The position numbers and the translations under genes were made by a program. A stretch of 64,000 nucleotides of DNA from an uncultured Candidatus Saccharibacteria bacterium. GTDB lineage: Bacteria > Patescibacteriota > Doudnabacteria > UBA920. The stretch is from the NCBI GenBank assembly GCA_964532005.1, contig CAZHER010000001.1, positions 55,502 through 119,501 on the forward strand, written 5' to 3'. Below are positions 52 through 64,000 of the stretch, piece after piece; the first letter of the stretch is position 1, and every line of letters starts with the position of its first letter. The notes below the pieces were generated by a model that ran no database searches, was not told the origin of the DNA, and saw nothing but the letters and a program-made list of their open reading frames with translations.

Positions 52-2691
52 TTGTATGTGATCCCGTTTTTGGGTTATGCCAGCTATTTGGTCCCTGGAA
101 CTACAAACGACGCAGCCTATTTCCCACCTAAAATCCCTGAGATAAGAGTAAAAGTATATGCAAACACTGATGCGGGTAGAGCAGCGTATTTAGCAGATAA
201 AGACAAACCACCAGAGGATAGTGACAACCAAGGAGGCACAAGTACCGCAGCCACTGGCGGCTCAGCAATTGGTGATATAATCAATCAATTTGTTACGATA
301 CAAATTCTGATATTTACCCGAATTATTTACTGGCTGTTTGCAAATGTTTTGGCCCCGTTGATTGAAGCTTTACTGCAAGTCCACCCATACAAAGACATTT
401 TTGTTGAGGTTATTTATTTAGGTTGGCAGTTGATCCGCAACCTTTGTAACATATTCTTTATTGTTGTTTTGCTTGTAATCGGTCTAGGAACTTTGTTCCG
501 GGTAGAAAACTATAATTATAAGCATTTGTTGGTTAAGGTTGTTATAGCAGCTTTGTTAGTCAACTTTAGCTTGGTATTTGGTCAAGCTATTCTAGGTGTT
601 GCCGATACAGTGCAAGCACAGTTTTTACCCGACAGTGCCAATGTTATTCGCGCTTTGGGCAGCAAGCTCATGGTAGATCCGATAAATACTCTTACTCAAG
701 ATGAAAATTTTAGAGTAGGAAACTCAACGAGCGCTGGGGCGTCTTTTGCCAATATCGCCCGTCCAATGTTTGCTTTTGCTTTGGCTTTAGGTGCATTTTT
801 TGCATTTATTGCTATTGCAGCATTTTTAGTGATTCGGTTAGTGGCTTTGTGGGTGTTGCTTTTGGTATCCCCAATTGCTTATGTGGCAAACATACTTCCA
901 ATGACCAGCAATTACGGCAAAGAGTGGTGGAATAAGTTTTTAAAATATGCTTTTATGACCCCTGTGCTGGCATTTTTCTTGAATTTAGCCGCTGTGTTTG
1001 CCACCACATTTTTAAAGGACCAAGCAAGCTTTCAGAAATTGATGAGCGCACAGAATGTTGAAGGAACTATTAGCGAGTTTGTTTTTCTTGCCGGTAGCCA
1101 AATTTTGGTAATTCTGTTTATTCTAGTGGGTCTAAAAGCTGCCGCCAGTTCAGGTACCTATGGTGCCGCTGCAGTTACAGAATTTGCCGAGAAAGGGATG
1201 AAGAAGCCGTTTCAATGGGCTGGTAGCAAAGCTTTGGCAGGGACCAAAGCCGGAGCTGAAAGAGGATTTGAGGCCATACAGAATAGAGCTGGAATTACCT
1301 TAGATCCGCGGTTGTTAAAAAAAGCTGGTTCAGAATATTTTGCCGAGCAAAAAGCAAAGCGCTTGCAAGCCAGAGCCACGCGTAATTTTATGGGTATGAA
1401 GCACGGCCCCAAACTAGGAGATGCTAAAAGTAATTTTGAAGCTTATGCCAATTGGCGCGGGTTCAAAAGAGCTGTTTCGAGCGGTCCTTTGGGTTGGCGC
1501 GGTGCTGGGTATTACCAAAAAAAATATAACGAGGCTTCACCTTATGCCAGCCTAAAGACCGATGCAGAAAGAAAGCTCATGACAGATAAACGTTTTTATA
1601 ATAATAAAGCTTTGAAAAATAGAGAACCAGACAAACAACGATTGGAAATAGAGCTTAAAACTGCTGAATCGGACTATAATGCAAATCCCAAAGATGATGC
1701 TAAAAGAGCAGCGTTCGAAGATAAGCAAAACGAGTACAAGCAGTTTATGAGAACCAAGATCAATCCGTTGACTGAAGAAAATGAAAAAATAACAGCTGAA
1801 TTGGACAAAGACGAGCAATTAAAAAAAGATCTTATTGACCCAAGGACAAAACAAAAAGGGATTGCGAGTTGGGATGACGATATGCAAAAAGAGTGGCGCG
1901 AAAAAAAGGAATCTTACGACAAAAAAATTACTGAAAGAAAAAGGCCGGAAGGCTATGCAGCTATTGCTGCTCACCACCACTTATTGAGCGATGAAGAAAA
2001 GAAAATTTCTCATATTGACGACTCCGATCGCTTAGTGCAGTTGTATAAAGATGCGTTTGCTCAAGGGGATAGATATAAAGCAGAAGCAGTACTTCACAAA
2101 CTTGCTAAAGATACCAATTTTAACGAAATTACCACAGAACTATATGGCGGGATGAGCAGGGATCATAGCAAAAGACTTTTTGAAGATTTTGGGGAGCATT
2201 TTGGAGTAGATGAACATGGGGTTTTAGAACTGGCTTCGGAAGTTGGGTATATAAATGAAGGGGTTAATATGTATAATGGCGCGCGTTTAACTACCGTGGA
2301 TAAGCATGGTCATATGAAATGGGCAGAAAAACAACAACATGAAGCTGCCATAGAAGCCCAAATGAAAAAGGTTGAGCCGCAAGGACAAGCTAGGAATTTT
2401 TGGCGAGGATCTTTTGTGGATGAGCAGCAAAACGACAAGGGCGGTAAAGATTTTACATTGCACGGTGCAGGTATCAAAATTCTTGAAGATTCATTGTCAA
2501 AAGGAGCAGGTTTGAGAGGCGTAGCCGAACGTATGCAAGAATATAACAGAAATGCTATTGCAAAAGCCATCAGAGACGAAGTAGAAAAAAATCCAGCCGC
2601 AGCACGTGAAAGTGTTAAAAAGCTATACAACAATAAAGATTTAATGAGAGCTCTAGAAATGGGTAAATATGATTCTAATGTTTCCAAATAA
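52..2691 (+). CDS. VirB6/TrbL-like polytopic membrane protein with a ~500-aa K/E/D-rich C-terminal extension; may be 5'-truncated by the window edge
   Basis: The N-terminal ~350 aa hold 6-7 predicted hydrophobic helices, as in TrbL/VirB6 proteins. It lies immediately upstream of PrgI-like and VirB4 genes. The reading frame is open upstream of the TTG at 52 to position 1, with a GGAGAGG RBS at 37-43. Confidence 0.55.
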   Translation: MYVIPFLGYASYLVPGTTNDAAYFPPKIPEIRVKVYANTDAGRAAYLADKDKPPEDSDNQGGTSTAATGGSAIGDIINQFVTIQILIFTRIIYWLFANVLAPLIEALLQVHPYKDIFVEVIYLGWQLIRNLCNIFFIVVLLVIGLGTLFRVENYNYKHLLVKVVIAALLVNFSLVFGQAILGVADTVQAQFLPDSANVIRALGSKLMVDPINTLTQDENFRVGNSTSAGASFANIARPMFAFALALGAFFAFIAIAAFLVIRLVALWVLLLVSPIAYVANILPMTSNYGKEWWNKFLKYAFMTPVLAFFLNLAAVFATTFLKDQASFQKLMSAQNVEGTISEFVFLAGSQILVILFILVGLKAAASSGTYGAAAVTEFAEKGMKKPFQWAGSKALAGTKAGAERGFEAIQNRAGITLDPRLLKKAGSEYFAEQKAKRLQARATRNFMGMKHGPKLGDAKSNFEAYANWRGFKRAVSSGPLGWRGAGYYQKKYNEASPYASLKTDAERKLMTDKRFYNNKALKNREPDKQRLEIELKTAESDYNANPKDDAKRAAFEDKQNEYKQFMRTKINPLTEENEKITAELDKDEQLKKDLIDPRTKQKGIASWDDDMQKEWREKKESYDKKITERKRPEGYAAIAAHHHLLSDEEKKISHIDDSDRLVQLYKDAFAQGDRYKAEAVLHKLAKDTNFNEITTELYGGMSRDHSKRLFEDFGEHFGVDEHGVLELASEVGYINEGVNMYNGARLTTVDKHGHMKWAEKQQHEAAIEAQMKKVEPQGQARNFWRGSFVDEQQNDKGGKDFTLHGAGIKILEDSLSKGAGLRGVAERMQEYNRNAIAKAIRDEVEKNPAAARESVKKLYNNKDLMRALEMGKYDSNVSK

Positions 2692-2701
2692 GATATTGTA
2701 A

Positions 2702-4000
2702 ATGGCTTTAGATTTAACAGCACAATCTACAAAGGAATTTGTTCTTGAAAGGATCAAGGATGCTATTGAGTATGATGATCAGCAAGCTGCCGGAGAGGTG
2801 TTGAAAATTTTTCGGGAAGAAATGGTTGGGCAGTTGAGCAGGGTCGAAGCAGATCCAGAGTTATATAATTTATATAGGCAGTCGTGGATCACCGCTCAAT
2901 TTATCAAGTTATCCAGTATTCCCGAAGATGAGTTTTTCGATTTGATAAAAGAACACTTAATAGATGGGTTGAAGTTAAAAGATTACGATATAGTCGAGAA
3001 GATCGGTTTAAGAATATCTTTTATCCAAATTGAGGAAGATCAAGTAGTTTTTATGGAAAATCTTCTGGAGATAATACAGAAGAATAGCGGCGTTTTGGGT
3101 AGTAATAATTTGAAGTTAGGTGGTCGTACAGTTTTACCCACTATTGCAAACTGGTTATTGGACTACGACAATTACCCCTCGCAGTCAGCGCAAAAGTCAG
3201 ATTATGAGCAAATTGCCTATTTAAGTAAAAGCCCAAATGTCGCCGCGCTTTCCGATGAAGAAAAAAGGATTTTAATGGACATTCTTGACTGTTATGATTC
3301 ATTAAGAAATCTTTTAGCATATTATAAAAAATTGCCGGAAGTTGAGGATGATGAGATAAAGCCAGAAGATTTGCATTTGTATTACCCCGGAGCAATTTTC
3401 GTGGATGATTTAGAGAGCAACGGGCCTGCTGGTCCCGTAGAAAGTAGTACGAAAACAGGTGCTGAGACTGTTAAACCTGTTCCTGCTGTTGTACCCAAAA
3501 TAGAAACTCCGGCACCAAAATATCAACCCCCACTTGAACCTAAGCCAGCAGTGAAGCAGGACAGCTATGTTTTAGAAAAAACAGAGCCAAAACCCGAGCC
3601 TGCAAAAAGCGTGGCCGAACAAGTAAAAGAAGCGGTAGAGAAAAATGAGTATAAAGCGCCAGCAAGACCGTTGTTAAATATTCAGGATTTTTTGAACGAG
3701 CGGCATAATAAAAATAACAACCGGGGCGGTTTGGTGTTCGACGCCGCCGCGGTTCCAGTTTCGGGTTCGCATCAATCTGAAAAGCCCAAAGTCCCTCTTA
3801 CGTCAAAATCAGAACCCACACCAACTAATCCCAAAGTTAGTACAGAACCTGCTTTGCCAAAGGTCCCAGAAAATTTGCCAGTCAAAGCAGAATTAGCAAG
3901 AGCCTCTGCCACTCAACCATCAGCAGTTTCCAATCAGTCAGGCAAAACAGAAGAAATAGCAAAAAAATTAGAAGAGCTGAGAAAGCGCAAGAAAACATAA
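2702..4000 (+). CDS. hypothetical protein with a Pro/Lys/Glu-rich low-complexity C-terminal half, T4SS-associated
   Basis: Long ORF tightly linked between the VirB6-like and VirB4 genes. PEPKPAVK-type proline-rich repeats. No recognisable catalytic motifs. Confidence 0.5.
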   Translation: MALDLTAQSTKEFVLERIKDAIEYDDQQAAGEVLKIFREEMVGQLSRVEADPELYNLYRQSWITAQFIKLSSIPEDEFFDLIKEHLIDGLKLKDYDIVEKIGLRISFIQIEEDQVVFMENLLEIIQKNSGVLGSNNLKLGGRTVLPTIANWLLDYDNYPSQSAQKSDYEQIAYLSKSPNVAALSDEEKRILMDILDCYDSLRNLLAYYKKLPEVEDDEIKPEDLHLYYPGAIFVDDLESNGPAGPVESSTKTGAETVKPVPAVVPKIETPAPKYQPPLEPKPAVKQDSYVLEKTEPKPEPAKSVAEQVKEAVEKNEYKAPARPLLNIQDFLNERHNKNNNRGGLVFDAAAVPVSGSHQSEKPKVPLTSKSEPTPTNPKVSTEPALPKVPENLPVKAELARASATQPSAVSNQSGKTEEIAKKLEELRKRKKT

Positions 4001-4003
4001 AAT

Positions 4004-4762
4004 ATGCAGCCTCAACAAGCAGAGCGACTTAAAAGAATGATTAGCACTTCCACTATCCTGTCTCAGCAGGAAAAACAAGAGTGGATGGATTTGCTAATAG
4101 TGATGAACGACAAGCAAGTTTCGGAATTGGAAACTATTTTGACTGCGCCAGAAGAGCAAAAATCCAATTTGAGCCATATTTCAAATCTACCTTCTTCTGT
4201 TGCCCAAACAGTTTTAAAATCAAGTCCCGTACCAGTAGCCAAATATCCTTTATCTAAGCCGAGAATTGTAAAACCAACAGCGTTTAAAGATTGGGAAGCT
4301 AAATTAAGAAGAACTTTGCAGGAAAAAGAGTTGAGTTCCGGGCCAGATGAGAAAACTTTACCAGCACACGTGTTAGGCAATGCAATCCCCACCAAACGAG
4401 AAATAACTCAACCTAGATCCCAGGAAGCAACCCCTTTGCACAAGAGCGCTTTAGTTCATACGGAGCCAACAGTAAAAATAGTTGAACCTAAAGATGTTCA
4501 GAATTTGAATGTGGCGACTATGAAAGCAATGGGATCTCAACTAAACGAAGTGCTGAAAAAAGCTGTTTTGGCCTCAAATTATTTTGAAGTTTTATTTTAT
4601 TTAGAGAAAAGCCCCCTATATCAGGCATATTTGGCAACAGGACGGGAAGCCCTGAAAGATCCGGCTAATACTTTTCCTGCAACTTTGGATGGTAAACAGC
4701 TTTTGACAAAAGCTGAATTTGAAGCTTTTTCTGACCTGTTAAAATCGATGCAAACGGGGTAG
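4004..4762 (+). CDS. hypothetical protein, T4SS-associated
   Basis: ORF starts 4 nt after the previous stop. No motif recognised. Confidence 0.45.
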   Translation: MQPQQAERLKRMISTSTILSQQEKQEWMDLLIVMNDKQVSELETILTAPEEQKSNLSHISNLPSSVAQTVLKSSPVPVAKYPLSKPRIVKPTAFKDWEAKLRRTLQEKELSSGPDEKTLPAHVLGNAIPTKREITQPRSQEATPLHKSALVHTEPTVKIVEPKDVQNLNVATMKAMGSQLNEVLKKAVLASNYFEVLFYLEKSPLYQAYLATGREALKDPANTFPATLDGKQLLTKAEFEAFSDLLKSMQTG

Positions 4763-4788
4763 TTTTATGGTATAATTGAGGGGAAGAT

Positions 4789-5247
4789 ATGCAATATAAT
4801 GTTCCCCAATTTACTGATGTAGAAGACAAGCTGGTAGCCGGCTTGGGATTTAAGCAGTTTGGGATCTTGTTCGGAGTAGGGGTCCTGATGTTTTTAACTT
4901 GGAACATTACAAAAAGCGTAGCTTTGCTAATTATTGTTGGCGTATTTTTAGGACTTCCTGCTTTGGCCATAGTGTTTATTAAGGTTAACGGGCGTCCTTT
5001 ATACAATTCGTTGTTTGCCTTGGCAGGTTCCGCTTTTGAAGCAAAACATTTTGTTTTTCACAAGCAGGGCATGACGTTGGCCGAAAATAAAGAGACTGCG
5101 GTAATTAAAGAAGAGACGCCAGCCCAAGCCACTGGCACGGCAATGGTAAGAATAAAACAGCTAAATTATTTGTTACAGCAACAAGCATCAGAAGAACAAC
5201 TGCTCATTCAACATATAGCAGATGGAAACAAAACAAAAGAAACATAA
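4789..5247 (+). CDS. PrgI/TcpE-family (VirB3-like) small membrane protein
   Basis: About 150 aa with two adjacent TM helices (GILFGVGVLMFLTW... LLIIVGVFLGLPALAIVFI) directly upstream of VirB4. It has the size, topology and position of PrgI/VirB3. RBS GAGGGGA sits upstream of the ATG. Confidence 0.55.
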   Translation: MQYNVPQFTDVEDKLVAGLGFKQFGILFGVGVLMFLTWNITKSVALLIIVGVFLGLPALAIVFIKVNGRPLYNSLFALAGSAFEAKHFVFHKQGMTLAENKETAVIKEETPAQATGTAMVRIKQLNYLLQQQASEEQLLIQHIADGNKTKET

Positions 5248-5911
5248 TAAATCCGTAAATCCGACCCAGTCGTTTTTACGTACCAAAGAGATCAAAGGGG
5301 ACACCATGATCATGGATGACGGTACTTTGCGTGCTGTTTTAGCCGTGTCCTCAACTAATTTTGATCTGAAAAGTCAGAGCGAGCAAGATGCACTAATTTT
5401 TGCGTACCAAAGATTTTTAAATTCATTAGACTTTTCCATTCAAATATTAATGCAAAGCAGGCGAATGGATATCGCCAGTTATACCGAAAAGATTAAGGAT
5501 ATAATGGAGAAACAAACCAATGAATTGCTTCGGATGCAAACCGCAGAATATATTGAATTCGTTAACCGCTTGGTGGAAACTGGAAATATCATGAACAAGA
5601 ATTTTTATTGCATTATTTCGTATAATGAAAGTATTGGATCTGACAAGGTGGGGTTTTTTGCATCGTTATTTACTAAAAGCCGAGCCAAGGCCATTGCCCA
5701 AAGAGAAGCCAATTTTGAACACCATAAAGCAATGTTGGAAGAACGGGTGACCAGCGTTTCCAGCAATCTCAATGGCATGGGCTTGCGTGCTGTGAAACTC
5801 AACACAGAGCAGATAATAGAGTTGATTTATAACTCATATAATTTTGAATCAGCTCCACAGATCGATGCCAGCCAGCTGGAAAATGTCACTTTAACAGAAG
5901 AAACAAAATAA
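5222..5911 (+). CDS. VirB4/TrbE-family N-terminal domain, encoded as a separate ORF (split VirB4)
   Basis: The segment DGTLRAVLAVSSTNFDLKSQSEQDALIFAYQRFLNSLDFSIQI resembles the N-terminal region of VirB4/TraC/TrbE. Its stop lies 1 nt before the ATG of the ATPase ORF, in a different frame. Confidence 0.55.
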   Translation: METKQKKHNKSVNPTQSFLRTKEIKGDTMIMDDGTLRAVLAVSSTNFDLKSQSEQDALIFAYQRFLNSLDFSIQILMQSRRMDIASYTEKIKDIMEKQTNELLRMQTAEYIEFVNRLVETGNIMNKNFYCIISYNESIGSDKVGFFASLFTKSRAKAIAQREANFEHHKAMLEERVTSVSSNLNGMGLRAVKLNTEQIIELIYNSYNFESAPQIDASQLENVTLTEETK

Positions 5912-5912
5912 A

Positions 5913-7754
5913 ATGGGATTATTTGATTTAAACGAAGAACAATTAAAGAAAAAGAAAGAAGAGCTGGGAAAGCTGAAGGGAACTCTGGATGAGAATGCCC
6001 GTCTGGCTGAAGTGGAAAAGAACTACCGAGAAGGGCTCACTACGTTAAAAGATCTACTGGCCCCTTCGGCTTTACATTTTGAAAGCAACAGGTTTCAGCT
6101 GAACAACAAGTATGCCAGAACTTTTTTCGTGCTCGCATATCCCAGAATGCTTTCTACTAACTGGCTGTCCTTTATTATCAACTCTGAGGGTGAGTTGGAT
6201 GTATCAATGTTTATTTACCCGATTGACTCAGCTGTTATTTTAAAAAAACTTAAGTCAAAAGTTGGAGAAATCGGTTCACAAATAAGCATAAACCAGGAAA
6301 AAGGAATGGTCAGGGATCCAATGCTGGAAACGGCGTATAAAGATGTCGAAAGCTTGCGCGATGACCTTTCGCAAGGCACAGAAAAATATTTCCGCTTCGC
6401 TTTATATTTCACTATTTATGCAGAAGATGAAAAGGAATTGGAGAAAAATTCTACAATCTTAGAAAGCTCCCTTGGCGCTAAACTTGTTGTCACCAAGAGG
6501 GCATTGTTTCAGACCGAGGCCGGGTTTAACTCCTCTTTACCTCTTGGGCTAGATGAATTGGACATTGCAAACAATTTAAATACCTCGCCGCTGTCCACAA
6601 CATTTCCCTTTGTATCTTCCGATTTAACAGGAAATGACGGAATTTTGTACGGAATAAACAGACACAACAACAGTTTGATTCTGTTTGATCGGTTTAAAAT
6701 GGAAAATGCGAACTTTGTTGTTTTTGCAAAATCTGGTGCTGGAAAATCATATGCTATTAAGCTCGAAGTTTTGCGTTCATTAATGGTAGGTACTGAAGTT
6801 ATTATAATTGACCCAGAAAATGAGTATAAGCATTTGTCCGACGCAGTGGGAGGCACCTACTTAGGAATTTCGCTAAACTCCGACTTCCGCATTAACCCTT
6901 TTGACCTGCCATCTGCAATAGAAGACGAAGATACCGCAGATATTTTACGCAGCGGCATTATTAACCTATTAGGCTTGTTTAACCTCATTCTAGGCAAGCT
7001 AGACCCTACAGAAGAGGCTCTGTTGGACAAGGCCCTATGGCAGACGTATGCTAAAAAAGACATCACTGAAGCTAGCGATTTACGCACTGTAGAGCCTCCT
7101 GTGATGGCAGATCTTATTGAAGTTTTGAACGATATAGTTGGGGCGGAAAGCTTGTCTCAGCGGTTGACCAAATTTACTGAGGGGACTTTTGCGGGACTGC
7201 TAAACCAACCAACTAATGTTACCTTAAACAATCAGTTGCTTACTTTTTCTATACGCGACTTGGAAGAAGAACTTCGCCCTATTGCTATGTATATTATTTT
7301 GGGGCATATATGGAACTTGGTTAGAAGCGAATTAAAGCGCCGAATTTTGGTTTTGGACGAAGCTTGGATTATGATGCAACACGAAGATTCCGCCAGGTTT
7401 GTATTTGGAATTGCCAAGAGATGTAGAAAGTATTATTTAGGACTGACCACCATAACCCAGGACGTAGCTGACTTTATGAGCAGCCCGTATGGTAAGCCGA
7501 TCGTGACGAACTCATCTATCCAGCTTCTATTAAAGCAAAGCCCGGCAGCTATCGAGGTTATTGCTGAAACATTTTTCCTAACCGAAGGAGAAAAATATTT
7601 GCTTCTGGAAAGCGAAGTCGGCGAAGGTATCTTCTTCGCCGGCCTAAAGCACGCCGCTATTAAAATATACGGCTCATACGTAGAGGACCAGATTATCACA
7701 ACAGATCCAAAACAGCTCTTGGAGATTAAGCAGAGCAAAGAAGAGGTAATTTAA
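5913..7754 (+). CDS. virB4: VirB4-like type IV secretion ATPase (C-terminal ATPase domain)
   Basis: Walker A FAKSGAGKSYAIK and Walker B RILVLDEAWIMMQ. Overall VirB4/TraE-like organisation. Confidence 0.8.
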   Translation: MGLFDLNEEQLKKKKEELGKLKGTLDENARLAEVEKNYREGLTTLKDLLAPSALHFESNRFQLNNKYARTFFVLAYPRMLSTNWLSFIINSEGELDVSMFIYPIDSAVILKKLKSKVGEIGSQISINQEKGMVRDPMLETAYKDVESLRDDLSQGTEKYFRFALYFTIYAEDEKELEKNSTILESSLGAKLVVTKRALFQTEAGFNSSLPLGLDELDIANNLNTSPLSTTFPFVSSDLTGNDGILYGINRHNNSLILFDRFKMENANFVVFAKSGAGKSYAIKLEVLRSLMVGTEVIIIDPENEYKHLSDAVGGTYLGISLNSDFRINPFDLPSAIEDEDTADILRSGIINLLGLFNLILGKLDPTEEALLDKALWQTYAKKDITEASDLRTVEPPVMADLIEVLNDIVGAESLSQRLTKFTEGTFAGLLNQPTNVTLNNQLLTFSIRDLEEELRPIAMYIILGHIWNLVRSELKRRILVLDEAWIMMQHEDSARFVFGIAKRCRKYYLGLTTITQDVADFMSSPYGKPIVTNSSIQLLLKQSPAAIEVIAETFFLTEGEKYLLLESEVGEGIFFAGLKHAAIKIYGSYVEDQIITTDPKQLLEIKQSKEEVI

Positions 7755-9848: not shown

Positions 9849-10667
9849 ATGGATAATTTACCACATAACAACCCAGAAGCGGTTACTGAGTCAGAATCGG
9901 AACAAGATTACAAACATGATTATCGGGATAGGGAAATCGGCCGACAGTATTTTCCTATTGCTGCCTATGTTGGAATTATTGTAGCAATATTGGTGGGAGC
10001 TCTGATTATCGGTTTTAGTATTATAATTTCTTCAGGAAAGTATCCTCAATTGGCTGGCGATCGAGATAGTAAGCTGGCCGGGCCATCTGTCAACACAGGC
10101 TCGCAAATACAAAACGTTCCCCCAAATGCTGAAATAAAATTATTAGATGAGTACCCGTTTATGGGTTCAAAAGACGCCCCTATTACCATGGTGGAATTTG
10201 CAGATTTTCAGTGCCCATTCTGCAAGGAGTTTCATGATAAAGCTTTGGGGAAAATAAAGTCGGAGTATGTTGATTCAGGAATTGTTAAATTTTATTTTTT
10301 ACATTTTCCTTTTCTCGGGTCTGAATCGAACGCAGCAGCTGCCGCAGCCGAGTGCGCCAGACAGCAAAATAAGTTTTGGGAATTTCACGATCTATTGTAC
10401 AAGAATCAAGGGATGGAAAACGGCGGAGCTTTTGAAGATAAAGCTTTGTTAAAATTGGCAGGCCAATTAGAGTTAAATCTGGACAAATTTAATTCTTGCA
10501 GGGCCAACCCCAAAACAGCGGAAGCAGTAAAACAGCAACTAGATATAGGCCAGCAGCATGGGGTTGAGGCCACACCCACGGTTTTCATCAATGGAGCAAA
10601 ATATGAAGGTTCTAATCCTTTTTCAGCTTATCAGAGCTTAATAGAGGTGCTGAAAAGTAAAAAATAA
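9849..10667 (+). CDS. membrane-anchored DsbA-like thiol-disulfide oxidoreductase (thioredoxin fold)
   Basis: N-terminal TM helix. CPFC active site in the context FADFQCPFCKEFHDK. Confidence 0.7.
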   Translation: MDNLPHNNPEAVTESESEQDYKHDYRDREIGRQYFPIAAYVGIIVAILVGALIIGFSIIISSGKYPQLAGDRDSKLAGPSVNTGSQIQNVPPNAEIKLLDEYPFMGSKDAPITMVEFADFQCPFCKEFHDKALGKIKSEYVDSGIVKFYFLHFPFLGSESNAAAAAAECARQQNKFWEFHDLLYKNQGMENGGAFEDKALLKLAGQLELNLDKFNSCRANPKTAEAVKQQLDIGQQHGVEATPTVFINGAKYEGSNPFSAYQSLIEVLKSKK

Positions 10668-52847: not shown

Positions 52848-53192
52848 GTGGCAAAGAAAGTTGCCAAGAGTGCAAAGAAAAAAGTTCTTGCAGTAAAAAT
52901 TGAGCAACCCCCGACAATCTGCAAGGAACTGAAAATACAGGTTTACGCCCTGAATTGGATACGTGTAGAACGCCTGTTTCGCAAGAACAGCCATAGCCCA
53001 AAGGCAGAGTGGAAAGGAAAGAATATTTCCATTTTGGCAATTGAAGGTTATGGTCGCCGCCGCGACAGAATCAGACAGGATAAAACCATCACAGAGTCAG
53101 TCCGCCGAGCTAAGATCTACGATCTAGAGAAAGCCCTGGACCGGTTTGTGATAAACTACACCTGCTATATGGGCAAGTTAATCTGTAAGTAG
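52848..53192 (+). CDS. small basic hypothetical protein (GTG start)
   Basis: AGGAGG RBS 8 nt upstream of the GTG. 114 aa, Lys/Arg-rich. Followed by a hairpin plus T-run near 53204-53250. Confidence 0.45.
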   Translation: MAKKVAKSAKKKVLAVKIEQPPTICKELKIQVYALNWIRVERLFRKNSHSPKAEWKGKNISILAIEGYGRRRDRIRQDKTITESVRRAKIYDLEKALDRFVINYTCYMGKLICK

Positions 53193-53700: not shown

Positions 53701-54600
53701 GCTAATAGACTTGTCGGTTTTAAAATGGTTCACAACCAGCTTCAACCAATATCTAGACCAGATTCCCAAATATACAAAAATAGTCATCAGAAGATTGGAC
53801 TTATGTCTGTAATGTTTATTGTAGTAGATCCACATGGCGTTGTGAAAATGGTATAGTGCAAATTTGGAAGCCTTTTTAGAAGACTGGCCTTTGTAGTGGT
53901 AGGAATAAGTTTTAGGGTAGTACCAAATTTTGTATCCTGCTTTGCGAGTTCTGTAGCAAAGATCTACATCTTCGCCGTACATAAAAAAATCTTCATCAAA
54001 TCCGCCAACTCTGCGGTAGCATTCGCGGGATATCATCATATATGCTCCAACAATGCAGTCAACTTGAGTTTCTTGGTCAACGTGTTTGTTTAGCACATTG
54101 TAAGCCCCAAACTTTTTCGGAAATAAATATTGCAATCCCGATAGTCTGTAGAAAGCAACTTTTGGGTTTGGTTCGCTACGTCTGGAGGCCCAGTCAATTT
54201 CTCCGTTGGCTTTAATGAGCTTACAGGAGGACATACCAATATTGGGATGGGCTTTCATGAAATCAACCATAACCTGGAAGATGTCTTCGGCAAGTTTTGT
54301 GTCTGGGTTCAATAGCAATAGGTAGTCGCCTTTAGCTATTGCCATCCCTTTGTTATTGCCTTTGCCAAACCCTTCATTTGTATTTTCAATAAGGGTAGTT
54401 TTTTCAGCAATTTCAGGGTTGCTTAAATACTGTTCGCGAATCATTTCTAGCGTTCCGTCGCGCGAGTCATTGTCCACTATTATTACTTCATAATTGTATT
54501 GTGTTTTAGACGCATAGACAGCATCCAAAGTGACGCGCATTTCGTCTTTAGCGCGGTAGGGAACTATGATAATTGACAGGTCGATATGTTTTGGATCCAT
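53695..54600 (-). CDS. family-2 glycosyltransferase
   Basis: GT-A N-terminus (IIIVPYRA...) and the DXD-like IIVDNDSRDGT. Confidence 0.75.
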   Translation of the reverse strand: MDPKHIDLSIIIVPYRAKDEMRVTLDAVYASKTQYNYEVIIVDNDSRDGTLEMIREQYLSNPEIAEKTTLIENTNEGFGKGNNKGMAIAKGDYLLLLNPDTKLAEDIFQVMVDFMKAHPNIGMSSCKLIKANGEIDWASRRSEPNPKVAFYRLSGLQYLFPKKFGAYNVLNKHVDQETQVDCIVGAYMMISRECYRRVGGFDEDFFMYGEDVDLCYRTRKAGYKIWYYPKTYSYHYKGQSSKKASKFALYHFHNAMWIYYNKHYRHKSNLLMTIFVYLGIWSRYWLKLVVNHFKTDKSISK

Positions 54601-55725: not shown

Positions 55726-56382
55726 TCAGACGCGGAACAGGGCAAATGCCAAGCATTCTGCAAGGTGTGGGTTGACATCGCCTTTGGTAAGAGCGATGTA
55801 CAGGTCGGCGAACGAAGCCCAAAATTCGTTATTGAGATTGCCGCCCTTGTAGGCATTAACCTCTTTTTTCTTGTATAGAACGCCGATCCGATTGGTTTTG
55901 TTGTGGTAACGCCCGCCATCTGCAGGCATAATACCCCAACTCACCCATTCGTTCCCATAGAGTTCTGCTCGCGGTGGCAGTTTGCCACCATGTGCTGCTC
56001 TCAAGTTGCTTTCGCTTGCCTGAAGAGTTGGACCAAGCAGAATGTGGTTTTTGTCGTAAGGGTTTCCCGGCTCTTCACGGGCGGTTACCAGACAGTGATG
56101 CCCATCTGTTACGAGAACCAGCACCCCTGGACCAGTCGTATCTTCCAGCATCGGCTGGTTCCACTCTGCAACTTCTCGGCTCCCGGTCTGGACATAAAAC
56201 CCTGCCAAGCGGAAAAACTTTCCATCGCTTCGGCTGTATTCCCACCGTCCGTCGTTGTTTCTGTATGCCCACGGCTCAATACCATCGAGCGAGCCTGGGC
56301 TTACAACCATTGTTGAATTGGCTCTTTGTTCTTCGAGCCATTTTTCCAATTGTGTTTTCATTATTACTGCAATTTCCTCCAA
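55726..56382 (-). CDS. single-domain NDP-hexose 2,3-dehydratase-like protein (Hexose_dehydrat family), GC-rich, likely horizontally acquired
   Basis: The motif REEPGNPYDKNHILLGPTLQASESNL resembles the conserved K/RxEPGN...PT.Q...SN core of EvaA/TylX3-type dehydratases. Local GC is well above neighbours. The start could instead be the ATG at 56361 (GGAGG upstream). Confidence 0.45.
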   Translation of the reverse strand: MEEIAVIMKTQLEKWLEEQRANSTMVVSPGSLDGIEPWAYRNNDGRWEYSRSDGKFFRLAGFYVQTGSREVAEWNQPMLEDTTGPGVLVLVTDGHHCLVTAREEPGNPYDKNHILLGPTLQASESNLRAAHGGKLPPRAELYGNEWVSWGIMPADGGRYHNKTNRIGVLYKKKEVNAYKGGNLNNEFWASFADLYIALTKGDVNPHLAECLAFALFRV

Positions 56383-59945: not shown

Positions 59946-61376
59946 ATGACCAATAACGTATCAAACAAGCAGAAAATAGAGTTCACTCCGGAAACGGCAG
60001 CTATGTTTGGCGTATCTGAGCACAAAGAAGCTACCCCAATAGATACAGAAACCATGGTTCCTGCTAATCTGCCAATCATCGATGCTGTGGGCACTACCGA
60101 AAAAAGCGAAGTTGCCGAACTGGCTGAATTGCCACATGAAAACCTTGATATGGAAGAAATCCAGCCAATTCCAGAGACTCCAGCTAATTCAAATTCAAAA
60201 GCTCGCGCAATATATATTGCCAAGTCCGTGGCGCCATATTTGGGAATTTTTCTTGTTGGTATTTTCTTGTATCAATACTTTTTTTCCGATTTTTCAGTAG
60301 GTAGTTTTATCAAAACCAACGACACTGCTACTGTTACCCAAACACAAGCCGAAGTCAACGAACGTTTGGTTGCGCTGAAGCAGGAAAAAGCTGGTGAATA
60401 CGCTAAGTGGATCAAGCAATTCTTTTATGAAGTTACAGATCCCGCAGTGATAGAAATGGACAATGATATTTCCGGCAACGGCTTGACTAATTTTGAAAAG
60501 TTCATGCTGAACTTAAACCCAAAGGCATATGACACTTTGGGGCTGGGTCAACCAGATGGACAAACAGTAATGGATGGAACTAACCCTTGGACCGGTAAAC
60601 CGATGACGGACAATCAGAAAAAAATTGTTGAACTATATTTTGACAGACAACTGATTTCTAACCGTCTTGCTGCAGGTAGTTTAAAGCTTGCTCAAAATAG
60701 TATTGCCAACGCCAGCGGTTCTCCAAACAACAACGGCTATGAAAATCCAAGTAACTATTCTTTTGTCGATGGCACGGGTACGGTGGGTGCAACTAATTCA
60801 GCTTCTAGTTCAGGCGGTGGTCAAGTTGCCGGAACTTACACCAACCAACCCCAGCAGATCTTGGGAACTTCTTCAACAGGATCTACGAGTACCGGTCAGG
60901 GAAGCGCTTTGCAGGGGCTGGATATTAACGCAGACATAGCCGGAGAGCTAAGCATTCCAGCAAATGGGATTAAAGCCCCTTTGGTTTTCACTAAGGACAC
61001 GAAGAATTTTGAATCTGATCTGACCAAAGGTGTGGTTCATTACCCTGGAACTGCAATGCCCGGTTCGGTAGGAACAGCATATATATCCGGCCACTCAAGT
61101 GGATATTCTTGGCAACGTAATGCATACAAAAATATTTTCCGCGGTTTGAACAATGTTAAAGATGGAACTTCATTTACCATTACAGTTACTTTAAAAGATA
61201 ATCGCAAAGCGACTATTCATTACGTGGTCCAGACCAGAAAAGAGTTTGCTCCAAATGACCAAGCTCAGTTTGTGCAAACTGCCGAGGCCAGAGTAGCTTT
61301 ATCTACTTGTTGGCCACTGGATACAACTTCTCGTCGTTTGGTTCTGTTTGCAAAACAGACCCAGGTAAGCTTCTAA
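59946..61376 (+). CDS. sortase-family transpeptidase with a long N-terminal extension and membrane anchor
   Basis: The C-terminal domain carries catalytic-triad-like H (YISGHSSG), C (ALSTCWP) and R (TSRRLV). N-terminal TM helix (LGIFLVGIFLY). Confidence 0.6.
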   Translation: MTNNVSNKQKIEFTPETAAMFGVSEHKEATPIDTETMVPANLPIIDAVGTTEKSEVAELAELPHENLDMEEIQPIPETPANSNSKARAIYIAKSVAPYLGIFLVGIFLYQYFFSDFSVGSFIKTNDTATVTQTQAEVNERLVALKQEKAGEYAKWIKQFFYEVTDPAVIEMDNDISGNGLTNFEKFMLNLNPKAYDTLGLGQPDGQTVMDGTNPWTGKPMTDNQKKIVELYFDRQLISNRLAAGSLKLAQNSIANASGSPNNNGYENPSNYSFVDGTGTVGATNSASSSGGGQVAGTYTNQPQQILGTSSTGSTSTGQGSALQGLDINADIAGELSIPANGIKAPLVFTKDTKNFESDLTKGVVHYPGTAMPGSVGTAYISGHSSGYSWQRNAYKNIFRGLNNVKDGTSFTITVTLKDNRKATIHYVVQTRKEFAPNDQAQFVQTAEARVALSTCWPLDTTSRRLVLFAKQTQVSF

Positions 61377-61402: not shown

Positions 61403-61434
61403 GGGATTCCGCTAATCTGGAATCCCTTTATTTT
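61403..61434 (+). terminator. rho-independent terminator
   Basis: Perfect 8-bp stem gggattcc/ggaatccc with an 8-nt loop, followed by tttatttt. Confidence 0.7.
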
Positions 61435-61495
61435 GGCTTATTTTAAAGAGTTTTTTGTGTGGGGCAGGCAGATTTATGAGGCTTTATTGGGGGTC

Positions 61496-61524
61496 TTGAC
61501 AAAATATAGGAAAAGTGATATAAT
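61496..61524 (+). promoter_or_regulatory. consensus sigma70 promoter (TTGACA-17 nt-TATAAT)
   Basis: Exact hexamers at 61496-61501 and 61519-61524. Confidence 0.65.
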
Positions 61525-61530
61525 ATTAAG

Positions 61531-61767
61531 TCATGGTTGAAAAGGGCAGAATTCAGGTTTTACAAGGGTTTCGGGTAGATTTTTGGCCAACTTCCTTAAG
61601 GAAATGGACAGAAATGTGCCCGGCATTCGCGCCGCGGCCTATACGTGTAGGCCGTGAGCGCAAGCTCAACGGCACGTAAGATATAAACGTTAACAGCAAA
61701 ACGTTTCTGGTTTTTTGACAAAGATGACCAATGCTGAGGTCGTCAGATGGATTGGAGGATCCAAAAA
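61531..61767 (+). promoter_or_regulatory. long (~240 nt) GC-rich structured 5' leader with an internal terminator-like hairpin (candidate attenuator/riboswitch, class unknown)
   Basis: Lies between the consensus promoter and the RBS/ATG at 61768. Contains the hairpin cggccta-tacgtg-taggccg. A 7-bp hairpin aaacgtt/aacgttt (61685-61706) is followed by ctgg and T6. Confidence 0.35.
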
Positions 61768-62565
61768 ATGAAAAAATTTTTCGCAACAATCGTAACATTG
61801 GCAATCGTTCTGTCTTTATTCGTTCCAGCCGTCGCACAGCGCGGTGGCACAGCTTCCGCGAAGACCTTTTTGGGTCAGGAAAAAAACGTTTCGATTCGGG
61901 TTGCCGGAGGCTTTGCCGATGGTAATTTGACCCGCCGTTTAGCGGCACAGGAATATCGAATGAAGTCAGGTAGCAAATGGGCGTTTACTGCTGAGGGTGA
62001 CGGCGAGGACTTTGTCATCGTCATTACCTGCAAGATTGTGAAGAATGGGTCGAGAACCCAGACGGACAATTTGCAGAAGGCAGTGAATAAGAACGCACGG
62101 GAGGAGATCAATCAGACGCGCCGGGCGACAGGCGAAGCAAAAGAAAACCTTCGCCGAAACATACCCCGTGGTCCTAACGGAATTCTCCGCGACCTCGGTG
62201 GCGAGCTAGGCGGTATCTGGATTGAACGGCAAGGCAACAAAAGAATTCAGCAACAGGAAGACAGGATGCAGTCGGATCGCTTTTCACAAGAACGCAATGA
62301 CGTAATTGTCACCGTTCAGTGGATCGTTCCGGGAACAACAAAGCCGACTCATGAATGGGTTGGTAGCGGTGTTTTACATCGTGGTACCCGTGACGAATTC
62401 GGGATTATTAAGACCAAAATCGCCGACAACACGTTGGCTGAAGATGGTCTGCCAGAAGGAACGGTCATAACTGACCGGTCCTATCAGGGCATTGCCGAGA
62501 TCGCTTTCAAAAGAGCAATCAAAGAAGAAGGCGGATCTTTCCCAAATCAAACAATCGGACGGTGA
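61768..62565 (+). CDS. secreted hypothetical protein (signal peptide), GC-rich, likely horizontally acquired
   Basis: GGAGG RBS 10 nt upstream of the ATG at 61768. Signal-peptide-like MKKFFATIVTLAIVLSLFVPAVA. Much higher GC3 than flanking genes. Confidence 0.55.
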   Translation: MKKFFATIVTLAIVLSLFVPAVAQRGGTASAKTFLGQEKNVSIRVAGGFADGNLTRRLAAQEYRMKSGSKWAFTAEGDGEDFVIVITCKIVKNGSRTQTDNLQKAVNKNAREEINQTRRATGEAKENLRRNIPRGPNGILRDLGGELGGIWIERQGNKRIQQQEDRMQSDRFSQERNDVIVTVQWIVPGTTKPTHEWVGSGVLHRGTRDEFGIIKTKIADNTLAEDGLPEGTVITDRSYQGIAEIAFKRAIKEEGGSFPNQTIGR

Positions 62566-62597
62566 CCGCCGTCCCAAACCACAGACTAGGAGATTAT

Positions 62598-63776
62598 ATG
62601 AAACAGATGAAACTAAGGGCGGTCATCACGATGTTGACTGCTTGGGCAATCGTTATGTCGTCGCTTTCGCCACTTATGGTGCGCGAGGTGTCGGCTCAGA
62701 CCAAGACTGCCGTCGTTGAAGGCGAGTTAGATCTAAATAAACTCAGAAAACTCAGCCCAGATGACCCGGCATACTACCGTTCGCCGAACGTGCGTTTTCT
62801 CTCAATGAATTTTAACAAGGCACAACGCGCGGATTTCACTTACCTTGTCGGTTCTTCGCCGCAGATTCGGGGTGGTGCAAAAACACAACCTCAAGCTGAC
62901 GAAGAGGATGTTCCGAACGACCGCGTTCGGGATATTGAGACAATGTCTAAGGGCATGACACTTTCCATTGTGAAATTGCCGACAGAAATGCCGGTTCGCG
63001 ATGCGGAAGGAAAGATTGTCCGTGCAAACGGCAAGGTTGTCATGGAACCAGTTATGGTTCGCCAAAAGAAAGGTTCGGGACAGTTACTCATGGTTTTGAA
63101 GTGTGCCAATTGGTCACGAGAGGTCGGATATGATCCGATCCCACCTCAACCAATTGACAACACCTGTAGAGACTTTAACCCAAACCCCACCCCGACGGCG
63201 AATCGAAACGATAAAGGTGAGATCATTTCCTATTCTTACGACTTCGGCTGTGGCAATAAAGCTACAGTCGCCGTTGAAGTGAGAAAAGAGAAAGAGGTTT
63301 GCAATTGCACTCCTGGGTCTTACACACCCACTCTTTTCAATCGCGGGAAGGGGGATGAAACCGCTAACGTGTCAAACATTGCCTCAATGAAGGAGTTGAA
63401 GAGCAGCCCTGCCTTTACGGTTAAGGAAGCTCTGATAGCTCGTTTCGGCGAAGCGACCATGACGAACGGCAAAGACAAGGATTGGGAGTTAATTCTCCGA
63501 GAAATGGATAAGTTCAAGCAAGGCATCGCAGATGTCCGGCTGAAATATTTATATCTTGAAGTTGACCTTTGTCCGACCGCGGCGGGAACGAACAATGTTC
63601 TCTTTCACGCCATTGCCGATGACGATCAGCCGCCGATCGTTAAAAAGCGGAATTGGGGAAAGATCCTTAAATGGGTCATTCCGATTATCGTCACGGTGGC
63701 GATAATTCTCATTGTGCGGGGTGGTGGAGGTTTGAAAAAGCCGATACCTATTCCACCGAGAATCACACCTCCGTGA
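62598..63776 (+). CDS. secreted Cys-rich hypothetical protein with signal peptide and C-terminal TM anchor, GC-rich
   Basis: AGGAG RBS upstream of the ATG at 62598. Signal peptide (MKLRAVITMLTAWAIVMSSLSPLM). About 10 Cys. C-terminal helix VIPIIVTVAIILIV followed by RGGGG. Confidence 0.55.
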   Translation: MKQMKLRAVITMLTAWAIVMSSLSPLMVREVSAQTKTAVVEGELDLNKLRKLSPDDPAYYRSPNVRFLSMNFNKAQRADFTYLVGSSPQIRGGAKTQPQADEEDVPNDRVRDIETMSKGMTLSIVKLPTEMPVRDAEGKIVRANGKVVMEPVMVRQKKGSGQLLMVLKCANWSREVGYDPIPPQPIDNTCRDFNPNPTPTANRNDKGEIISYSYDFGCGNKATVAVEVRKEKEVCNCTPGSYTPTLFNRGKGDETANVSNIASMKELKSSPAFTVKEALIARFGEATMTNGKDKDWELILREMDKFKQGIADVRLKYLYLEVDLCPTAAGTNNVLFHAIADDDQPPIVKKRNWGKILKWVIPIIVTVAIILIVRGGGGLKKPIPIPPRITPP

Positions 63777-63860
63777 TGGTTGATTTTCATTTTTTTGATA
63801 TAAAGTTCGCTCCTTGTTGTATGACCAGCAACAAAGGGTTACCCTCAGGGAGCGACTCTA

Positions 63861-63901
63861 GAACGCGTATGATCTTTCGAGGTTGTACGCGTTCTTTTTT
63901 T
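63861..63901 (+). terminator. rho-independent terminator
   Basis: 9-bp stem gaacgcgta/tacgcgttc followed by T8. Confidence 0.7.
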
Positions 63902-64000
63902 GATTTTGCTAGGTTTTGTAACAAAACTTGGGTTTAGGTCGTTCTATAATTATAGAGGGCAAGAGAAATCGCTTGCTTTAGGAATATTTGGTATAATATG

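Follow-up and report, generated by a model that had tools for sequence, protein, structure and literature searches.

A compositionally atypical gene pair with a conserved structured leader is probably a resident operon of a Candidatus Saccharibacteria clade

Two adjacent genes of raised guanine-cytosine (GC) content, A (61768..62565) and B (62598..63776), lie on the plus strand near the end of a 64,000-nucleotide stretch of Candidatus Saccharibacteria DNA (the window; contig CAZHER010000001.1, positions 55,502 to 119,501). The pair probably constitutes a resident, vertically conserved envelope operon of one Candidatus Saccharibacteria clade, in which a leader RNA, both genes and an atypical composition are maintained together and alleles are exchanged among relatives. 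Synteny, composition, promoter and RNA structure are conserved across lineages, the synonymous divergence of the unit is reduced in a mosaic pattern, and neither protein belongs to a known family. Of most interest, and partly outside the coordinates first given, are a conserved leader RNA (61531-61767) not described before and an island of atypical composition that has outlasted deep divergence. An earlier sequence-only reading had interpreted the same pair as a recently imported cassette.

The A-B pair occupies a fixed slot in a conserved gene order. Counterparts were found in seven related lineages (L003, L002, L004, L005/L006, L007, L065 and L128), of which L065 and L128 are represented by partial loci and L007 is a metagenome-assembled genome of an uncultured Candidatus Saccharibacteria bacterium from a collection of species-representative genomes. 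L132, a 72-kb scaffold from the European Nucleotide Archive, comes from the same population as the window. On every contig long enough to show the context, the order is rmlBCDA, sortase, A, B, a family 2 glycosyltransferase (GT2) and an S8 peptidase. The flanking proteins of the seven lineages are 60–98% identical to those of the window (60–88% in L007). B and A are 94% and 91% identical to their window counterparts in L003, 54% and 45% in L002, 46% and 22% in L004, 39% and 28% in L005/L006, and 34% and 22% in L007 and L065; B of L128 is 34% identical, with no value available for A. The similarity ranking of A and B across the lineages is the ranking of the flanking proteins. No related lineage found lacks the cassette, and the same place holds a B-like gene even in a more distant locus (L131, 263-5023), which contains a sortase gene and genes for an unrelated 389-residue exported protein (protein X), a B-like protein (27% identity) and a GT2. 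The L131 genes are not GC-rich and the leader is absent, indicating that the compositional anomaly goes with the leader-A-B unit. Protein X was rejected as an A homologue (hhalign probability 0.7%), and the spacer between the sortase and X genes carries G/C-rich inverted repeats (CCCTCCCC.../GGGAGAGG) instead of the leader.

The nucleotide composition of the A-B block departs from that of the window in GC content overall and at third codon positions, in CpG and TpA frequency and in codon usage. The window has an overall GC content of 41.2% (0.412), and GC content at third codon positions (GC3) is 0.383 ± 0.042 in the 53 open reading frames (ORFs) other than A and B, which served as the baseline. 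Gene A has a GC content of 0.501 (z 3.2) and a GC3 of 0.508 (z 2.9), and gene B has values of 0.489 (z 2.8) and 0.524 (z 3.3); the raised GC3 is distributed evenly along each gene. In 2-kb steps, the segment 62001-64000 exhibits the highest GC content (0.48; runner-up 0.44), the highest observed/expected ratio of CpG (1.23; runner-up 1.04) and the lowest ratio of TpA (0.56; runner-up 0.62) in the window. For the A-B block itself, the CpG ratio is 1.25 versus 0.86 elsewhere in the window, and the TpA ratio is 0.49 versus 0.75. The relative synonymous codon usage (RSCU) of the cassette is uncorrelated with that of the remaining window (r = 0.19). NCG codons fill 31% of the four-fold boxes of Ala, Pro, Ser and Thr in the cassette, compared with 13%, and the biggest codon shifts are toward NCG, CGG and the G-ending codons of Lys, Glu and Gln.

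The quantitative analysis thus bears out the atypical GC content and codon usage proposed by the sequence-only reading. On dinucleotides the cassette is the sole outlier, whereas two further window genes match its GC3 (52848-53192, 0.522; 55726-56382, 0.516). The first of these, a 114-residue ORF on the plus strand directly upstream of rplU (L21), is without a match in Pfam or NCBIfam and is kept in L003 and L132, with a GC3 of 0.52 in the window and 0.45 in L003. The second, on the minus strand, is a short NDP-hexose 2,3-dehydratase-like gene (~210 residues) and represents a second persistent compositional outlier of the locus: its GC content is 0.49–0.52 in every low-GC relative (L003:3956-4591, L005:1941-2570 and L002:858-1289). 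This gene is missing from the equivalent place in L007, and its proportion of synonymous differences (pS) between the window and L003 is intermediate (0.54).

The anomaly of A and B recurs in all seven lineages. In the low-GC relatives, the GC3 of A and B is 0.42–0.53 versus 0.27–0.37 in most flanking genes. The same direction is observed at a higher level in L007 (50% GC; 0.64 and 0.70 versus about 0.60) and in L128 (0.60–0.64 versus 0.50–0.53). The NCG-codon share is 0.30–0.42 in the cassettes versus 0.05–0.13 in their own low-GC genomes. Cassette RSCU correlates between lineages with r values of 0.46–0.80, compared with −0.02 to 0.19 between cassettes and their own genomes, and the correlation among cassettes persists despite saturated synonymous sites between those lineages. 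Because it is present in every lineage, the anomaly is old and maintained rather than a mark of recent arrival.

A and B form a transcription unit of their own, with a promoter and two bounding terminators on the plus strand. The upstream boundary is the intrinsic terminator of the sortase gene (59946-61376) at 61403..61436, in which a hairpin (61403-61426) with a 9-bp stem containing five GC pairs precedes a T run; a hairpin is retained at this position in all relatives (GGGATTCC...GGAATCCC). An extended sigma-70 promoter at 61496..61524 (TTGACA-17 nt-TG-n-TATAAT) matches the consensus at 12 of 12 positions. The promoter (TTGACAAA...AAAAGTGnTATAATA) is invariant in all seven related lineages, and the DNA immediately upstream of it is unconserved. 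The downstream boundary is a strong intrinsic terminator at 63860..63902, composed of a hairpin (63860-63895) with a 16-pair stem and a T7 run; every lineage has a hairpin and a T run there, with a differing stem sequence. The ribosome-binding sites read from the sequence are GGAGG (61754-61758), 9 nt before the ATG of A, and GGAG (62589-62592), 5 nt before the ATG of B. The terminators, the strong ribosome-binding sites and the separate transcription unit had all been recognized in the sequence-only reading. It had also assigned the cassette its own consensus promoter, which is indeed perfect but lies 237 nt upstream of A rather than adjacent to it, with a structured leader in between. Past the cassette terminator, an invariant palindrome (TTTTGTAACAAAA, 63911-63923) and, for the downstream GT2 gene, a conserved extended -10 promoter (TTTGGTATAAT, ~63985-63998), which together correspond to L132:12140-12230, are kept in all lineages, the 50%-GC ones included. 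Given this conservation, the palindrome may be an operator-like site.

The region between the sortase gene and A is far more conserved than the coding sequences and contains a previously undescribed structured RNA, which is more conserved than the proteins that it precedes. The leader spans ~237 nt (61531..61767, with the start inferred from the -10 box) and is a candidate cis-regulatory element. Its first 40 nt are unconserved. Helix P1 (61572-61622) is followed by a core (61616-61675) that is closed by GUGCC/GGCAC and encloses P3 (61635-61654) and P4 (61656-61667). Three further hairpins, P6 (61685-61706), P7 (61723-61744) and P8 (61749-61762), lead to the start codon of A. The Shine-Dalgarno (SD) sequence GGAGG sits in the loop and 3' arm of P8, the last hairpin, and is thereby displayed. 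Invariant blocks, such as AATGTGCCCGGCA, GCGCCGCGG and ACGGCAC, run through the lineages, and between the window and L007 the leader core retains 72% identity, compared with 22% for protein A.

The secondary structure of the leader is supported by folding energy and by covariation. The 240-nt leader sequence has a minimum free energy of -87.5 kcal/mol, compared with -61.0 ± 4.4 kcal/mol for shuffled sequences (z -6.0; 0/200), and single-sequence folds recover the same hairpins in every lineage. The alignments comprise seven sequences from approximately five independent lineages. In a MAFFT alignment, the eight-helix structure pairs 89.3% of cells, compared with 37–47% when the partners are slid, and 13 pairs show compensatory changes on both sides. 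In a covariance-model alignment, which is fitted to the model, 92.1% of cells are paired, none of 500 shuffles matches the score, and 15 pairs have changed on both sides versus 0–6 when slid. Compensatory support is best for P1, P4, P6, P7 and P8; in P4, for example, two lineages have AGGC/GCCU in place of GAGC/GCUC, and most loops there are of the GNRA type. Within the invariant core, two pairings are possible: GUGCC with GGCAC, closing the junction, or UGCCCG with CGGGUA upstream. This alternative pairing is a possible candidate switch, located in an invariant core and hence beyond covariation.

The element shows, between promoter and start codon, the conserved and covarying structure expected of a generic structured cis-regulatory leader. 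Like the riboswitches and cis-regulatory leaders of Rfam, the element is long and conserved, forms a multi-helix junction with invariant unpaired nucleotides, shows covariation and embeds the SD sequence in a hairpin. Unlike them, it matches no family, exhibits no clear switch and is seen in one narrow clade only. A comparison with 4227 Rfam families gave no match at the gathering score and only noise at E <= 10, and neither a clear terminator/antiterminator nor an SD-sequestering switch was observed in the leader. The element is single-copy within the window and was found only together with A and B. Scanning metagenomes with its invariant motif returned at least 120 stretches, among which nhmmer identified one true leader (L065); the others were rejected as hits that a GC-rich pattern of 17 bases yields by chance in so large a collection. 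An independent small RNA (6S, signal recognition particle RNA or similar) was discarded as an identity for the leader in view of the unconserved first 40 nt, the lack of a family match and the lack of a good terminator before A, the P6 hairpin having two GC pairs and a U run that begins 4 nt after it. A leader peptide was rejected as well, as the ORF at 61533-61679 is unconserved.

The 3' untranslated region (UTR) of the transcript contains an element, TTTTCATTTTTTTGAT (63784..63799), that begins 8 nt past the stop codon of B and is complementary at 15 of 16 positions to the translation start region of A (ATCCAAAAAATGAAAA, 61759-61774). All seven lineages have an equivalent element with 10–16 nt of complementarity to their own A start region. 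The pairing is AAAAAATG-CATTTTTT in four lineages and AAAAGATG-CATCTTTT in three, an A:T to G:C covariation at one position. The sequence is of low complexity, and the exact 12-mer of the element occurs three times in the window. The two regions may form a 5'-3' mRNA duplex; alternatively, they may be DNA inverted repeats that bound the coding block, and inversion of the block was seen in no assembly. Base pairing between the 5' and 3' UTRs of an mRNA has been described for icaR of Staphylococcus aureus (PMC3868564) and hbs of Bacillus subtilis (PMC5737220). As in those reports, a 3'-UTR element here is complementary to the translation initiation region of its own transcript, and, as described for hbs, a highly structured 5' UTR precedes the gene, in that case a strongly expressed one. 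Unlike the duplexes as described there, the predicted duplex covers the start codon rather than the SD sequence, consists of 10–16 AU-only base pairs and spans an mRNA of 2 kb with two genes. An antisense ORF at 63626-63790 was rejected, as its frame relative to a conserved TTTTCAT varies among lineages. Farther into the 3' UTR (63800-63850), a branched hairpin (GTTCGCTCC...GGGAGCGAC) holds a conserved GACCAGCAAC. CAGCAA in the P6 loop of the leader resembles this element, which may reflect a shared protein-binding motif.

The transcription unit is unusually similar between the window and its closest relative. Nucleotide identity between the window or L132 and L003 is about 0.80 in the flanks (0.70–0.85 over 20 kb) and 0.90–0.96 from the promoter to just past the terminator. 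The pS between the window and L003 is 0.66–0.81 in ten flanking genes, 0.32 in A and 0.26 in B. Identical residues are encoded by the same codon in 46–58% of cases in the flanks, 76% in A and 82% in B. Within the cassette, two blocks are at the level of the flanks, namely A codons 81–120 (47%) and B codons 121–160 (57%). Among more distant lineages, no protein of the locus evolves faster than A and B, so their similarity between the window and L003 does not reflect slow evolution. For this pair, synonymous divergence in the cassette is 4–5 times lower, in a mosaic manner, while across lineages the cassette and its flanks rank alike in similarity. Homologous recombination leaves just such a mixture of young and old segments, and the low-divergence block suggests homologous allele exchange between related Saccharibacteria. 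The horizontal transfer proposed by the sequence-only reading consequently survives in a narrower sense, as exchange among relatives, and not as import from outside. Recombining bacterial genes tend to have a raised GC3, which PMC4450053 attributes to GC-biased gene conversion, and such conversion would link the exchange to the raised GC content of the unit.

The main alternative to GC-biased gene conversion is selection on the mRNA, in which stability, avoidance of UA sites and structure maintain the composition of the transcript, the leader and the 5'-3' complementarity are parts of one adaptation, and recombination is incidental. The shifts in TpA (0.49 versus 0.75) and CpG (1.25 versus 0.86) are confined to the unit and affect old and young blocks alike, which speaks for such selection. 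The elaborate conserved 5' leader and 3' UTR, the covarying complementarity between start region and 3' UTR and the precedents of hbs (PMC5737220) and icaR (PMC3868564), as far as those reports describe them, speak for it as well, and it would account too for the match between the low-divergence block and the transcription unit. Against these points, near-uniform codon usage gives little reason for a 4–5-fold lower rate of synonymous substitution, and the mosaic blocks favour recombination as well. As a sufficient explanation without exchange, mRNA selection is unlikely, though it is the strongest competitor of the resident, recombining operon.

Classical codon bias, that is, translational selection on very highly expressed genes without recombination, is less probable still. 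A perfect promoter, strong SD sequences and a long leader fit high expression, and the low-divergence block equals the transcription unit. Part of the codon pattern also points this way: the C-ending share of two-fold boxes rises from 0.35 to 0.50 in the cassette, ATC, GTC, TTC and CTC are enriched, and ATA, GTA, AGR and AGT are avoided. However, the effective number of codons is 57–59 in the cassettes and exceeds the window mean of 53.4, so that codon usage is near-uniform and not biased, and the shifts toward NCG, CGG and G-ending Lys, Glu and Gln codons are not typical of optimal codons. The gene for ribosomal protein L21 is unshifted, with a GC3 of 0.41 in the window and 0.29 in L003. The near-uniform usage together with the unshifted L21 gene makes translational selection a poor explanation, and the mosaic synonymous conservation, with flank-level blocks in both genes, also stands against it.

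Recent acquisition of a foreign islet from an unrelated GC-richer donor, not yet ameliorated, is highly improbable. It would account for the atypical composition and codon usage, the cassette's own promoter and terminators and the rarity of A and B in databases. A classical genomic island indeed shares with the A-B block an atypical GC, dinucleotide and codon signature with sharp borders; unlike such an island, the block is free of mobility functions, occupies one and the same site in every relative found and has an ancient anomaly. Orthologues fill the same slot in seven more lineages, whose synonymous divergence is saturated; A and B rank these lineages by similarity as the flanks do, and all seven show the anomaly. 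No nearby tRNA gene, mobility gene or flanking direct (att-like) repeat was found at the locus, no similarity to the cassette was detected in phage or plasmid records, and all A and B homologues found lie in Saccharibacteria-type loci. The claim of a recent import is thus not sustained. An assembly artefact at about 61.4 kb, with a chimeric contig end joined to a GC-richer organism, was raised by the position of the block at the window end and the abrupt change in composition and can be dismissed: L132 is identical across the junction and runs 8 kb further into the same conserved locus, L001 has identical junctions and shares the B gene together with a 127.7-kb contig, and six other independently assembled lineages show the same junctions. 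As a separate observation, the window and L132 differ at nine positions in 12.2 kb, in two tight clusters (62369-62403 and 54281-54304). The first, in A codons 201–212, holds six differences in 35 nt at which the window has G/C where L132, L001 and L003 have T/A, changing VVLNLVTRE to GVLHRGTRD. Either a micro-conversion tract or a mistake in the sequencing or assembly of the window record may account for this cluster.

A and B are orphan proteins with no known family or fold; searches of Pfam, NCBIfam, PHROGs and PDB sequence profiles gave zero family matches. Gene A encodes 265 residues with a putative signal peptide (cleavage between AVA and Q), no membrane anchor and a conserved C-terminus (...IGR), and A is predicted to be a basic soluble exported protein. 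The mature protein is ~27 kDa with an isoelectric point (pI) of 9.6, its homologues are mostly basic (pI 7.1–9.6), and they form three clusters in 5.8 billion proteins. An AlphaFold2 model of A consists of an α/β body and a long helical hairpin. In a Foldseek search of the PDB, this model, with a predicted local distance difference test (pLDDT) value of 55.8, gave weak TraT/PelC/LptE-like matches (E 3e-3 to 0.1, TM-score 0.21–0.29), and a TraT/PelC/LptE-like fold is taken as a lead, not a result.

Gene B encodes 392 residues with a putative signal peptide (cleavage between VSA and Q), a six-cysteine ectodomain, one transmembrane (TM) helix (nt 63675-63716) and a tail (LKKPIPIPPRITPP). The features are those expected of a basic type-I membrane protein (mature form ~40 kDa, pI 9.1). 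The C-terminal hydrophobic segment VIPIIVTVAIILIV, followed by RGGGG, is conserved, as is the cytoplasmic Pro-rich tail LKKPxPxPPRITPP. All six cysteines are conserved among close homologues and five of them across the wider family, and three disulfides are probable. B homologues form four 90% clusters in 5.8 billion proteins and have 13 representatives in 1.84 billion. The AlphaFold2 model of B is mainly β (pLDDT 66.7) and found no match in a Foldseek search of the PDB. A profile of B weakly matches PKD-repeat proteins at residues 201–262 (E about 1e-4), and B contains YDFGCG, weakly resembling the motif WDFGDG of PKD-like Ig domains, with no match in Pfam. By sequence inspection only, signal-peptide-like N-termini with an A-x-A site followed by Q are conserved in all A and B homologues. 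Neither signal peptide has a Cys near the cleavage site that would form a lipobox. No LPXTG, LAXTG or NPXTG sorting signal was found in A or before the TM helix of B, and the region preceding the helix lacks a conserved sorting motif.

The signal peptides, the C-terminal anchor with RGGGG and the predicted export of both proteins agree with the sequence-only reading. Its estimate of about ten cysteines in B was too high, as B has six and A has one; a DsbA-like gene is present in the window (9849-10667). The profile searches and structure predictions that it had proposed were completed and yielded neither a known family nor a convincing fold relative.

The favoured operon would work as follows. 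The perfect-consensus promoter would drive a transcript that opens with the 237-nt leader of about eight helices, runs through A and B and stops at the strong terminator. The leader, perhaps with the 5'-3' pairing, could set mRNA stability or translation, possibly via a bound factor or ligand. B would act as the membrane-anchored partner and A as a peripheral one, a partnership that their co-conservation suggests, and together they would form an envelope or surface component. The two proteins may be abundant, judging from the perfect promoter, the strong SD sequences, the long structured leader and the neighbouring glycan genes. The GC- and CpG-rich, TpA-poor composition would be a property of the transcription unit that is upheld in every lineage, and the block would be exchanged between related lineages through homologous recombination. 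The candidate forces that would maintain the composition are selection on the mRNA and GC-biased gene conversion at a hot spot of recombination.

The A-B operon is reminiscent of S-layer glycoprotein loci and of the basic S-layer proteins of Lactobacillus. SlaB and SlaA of Sulfolobales form a two-component S-layer from a membrane-anchored stalk and a soluble outer subunit. Similarly, the A-B operon, which lies beside glycosylation genes, encodes two exported proteins of which one is anchored and the other is not; in contrast, SlaB and SlaA are archaeal, far larger and unrelated in sequence, and the A-B partnership is proposed from co-conservation. The slpA region of Clostridioides difficile is a surface-protein block in a fixed slot of a cell-wall locus that diverges between lineages while its flanks are conserved. 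The A-B block likewise is a putative surface-gene block in a fixed slot, with divergence between lineages, conserved flanks and signs of allele exchange. Exchange of S-layer and other surface loci by homologous recombination is reported for C. difficile in PMC7677006. Unlike the C. difficile S-layer cassette, A and B have no CWB2 or SLH domains and no sequence relation to it, the two proteins are far smaller, a TM helix anchors B, which also has six cysteines, and an S-layer in this clade is conjectural. Searches of Pfam, NCBIfam and PDB revealed no S-layer domains (SLH, CWB2 etc.) or S-layer homology in A or B, and on this account the two are not classified as S-layer proteins. The literature on Saccharibacteria S-layers or sortase substrates yielded nothing specific.

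Several points weigh against the resident, exchanging envelope operon. The reduced synonymous divergence comes from a single close pair, the window or L132 versus L003, and could partly reflect mRNA constraint; moreover, the low-divergence block has the extent of the transcription unit, a match that need not arise with a recombination tract placed at random. The RNA structure is derived from only seven leader sequences of about five independent lineages, and pairing within the invariant core is not testable by covariation. The abundance and location of A and B are inferred only. The six conserved cysteines and the sizes of 27 and 40 kDa are unusual for classical bacterial S-layer proteins, A and B lack any known wall-anchoring domain, and the models, whose confidence is low to moderate (pLDDT 55.8 and 66.7), have no convincing fold relatives.

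Saccharibacteria live attached to other bacteria, and their surface proteins are largely uncharacterized. As clade-specific, exported, fast-evolving and apparently exchanged proteins, A and B are candidates for a coat, attachment or phage-receptor role. The leader could be a rare case of regulation by RNA in the Candidate Phyla Radiation, whose genomes are reduced. The operon is also a clean natural case in which atypical composition does not equal recent horizontal transfer, which calls for caution with composition-based island finders, and it offers a test bed for GC-biased gene conversion versus selection at the mRNA level. A bolder and doubtful extension would see a self-contained expression module, centred on a regulatory RNA of a new class, that consists of a ligand- or protein-sensing leader, an mRNA-closing duplex and a two-protein coat or host-contact layer of epibiotic Saccharibacteria, with the GC island as the footprint of a gene-conversion hot spot under diversifying selection by hosts or phages.

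By its gene content, the A-B neighbourhood is a cell-envelope glycopolymer locus. The neighbouring genes encode MreB, MreC, PBP2, a Mur ligase, a PMT_2-type glycosyltransferase, several GT2s, a family 4 glycosyltransferase (GT4), RmlB, RmlC, RmlD, RmlA and the sortase. Beyond B, L132 continues with the GT2, the S8 (mycosin-like) peptidase, a 558-residue exported protein, a Wzx-type flippase and a TagD-like cytidylyltransferase. The S8 peptidase matches the mycosin model of NCBIfam (TIGR03921) below its cut-off, and its C-terminal segment (...NPTVY[WY]..DG...P...) is similar to that of the 558-residue protein that follows (L132:12993-16557). An Rfam scan of the whole window detected three tRNAs only. 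At the opposite end of the window, a plus-strand cluster (52-7754) comprises a PrgI-family protein (4789-5247), a VirB4/TraG-type ATPase (5913-7754) and adjoining large ORFs that have no Pfam match, and its predicted gene content resembles a type IV secretion or conjugation-like system of the Gram-positive type. An M15 peptidase and the DsbA-like protein come after it.

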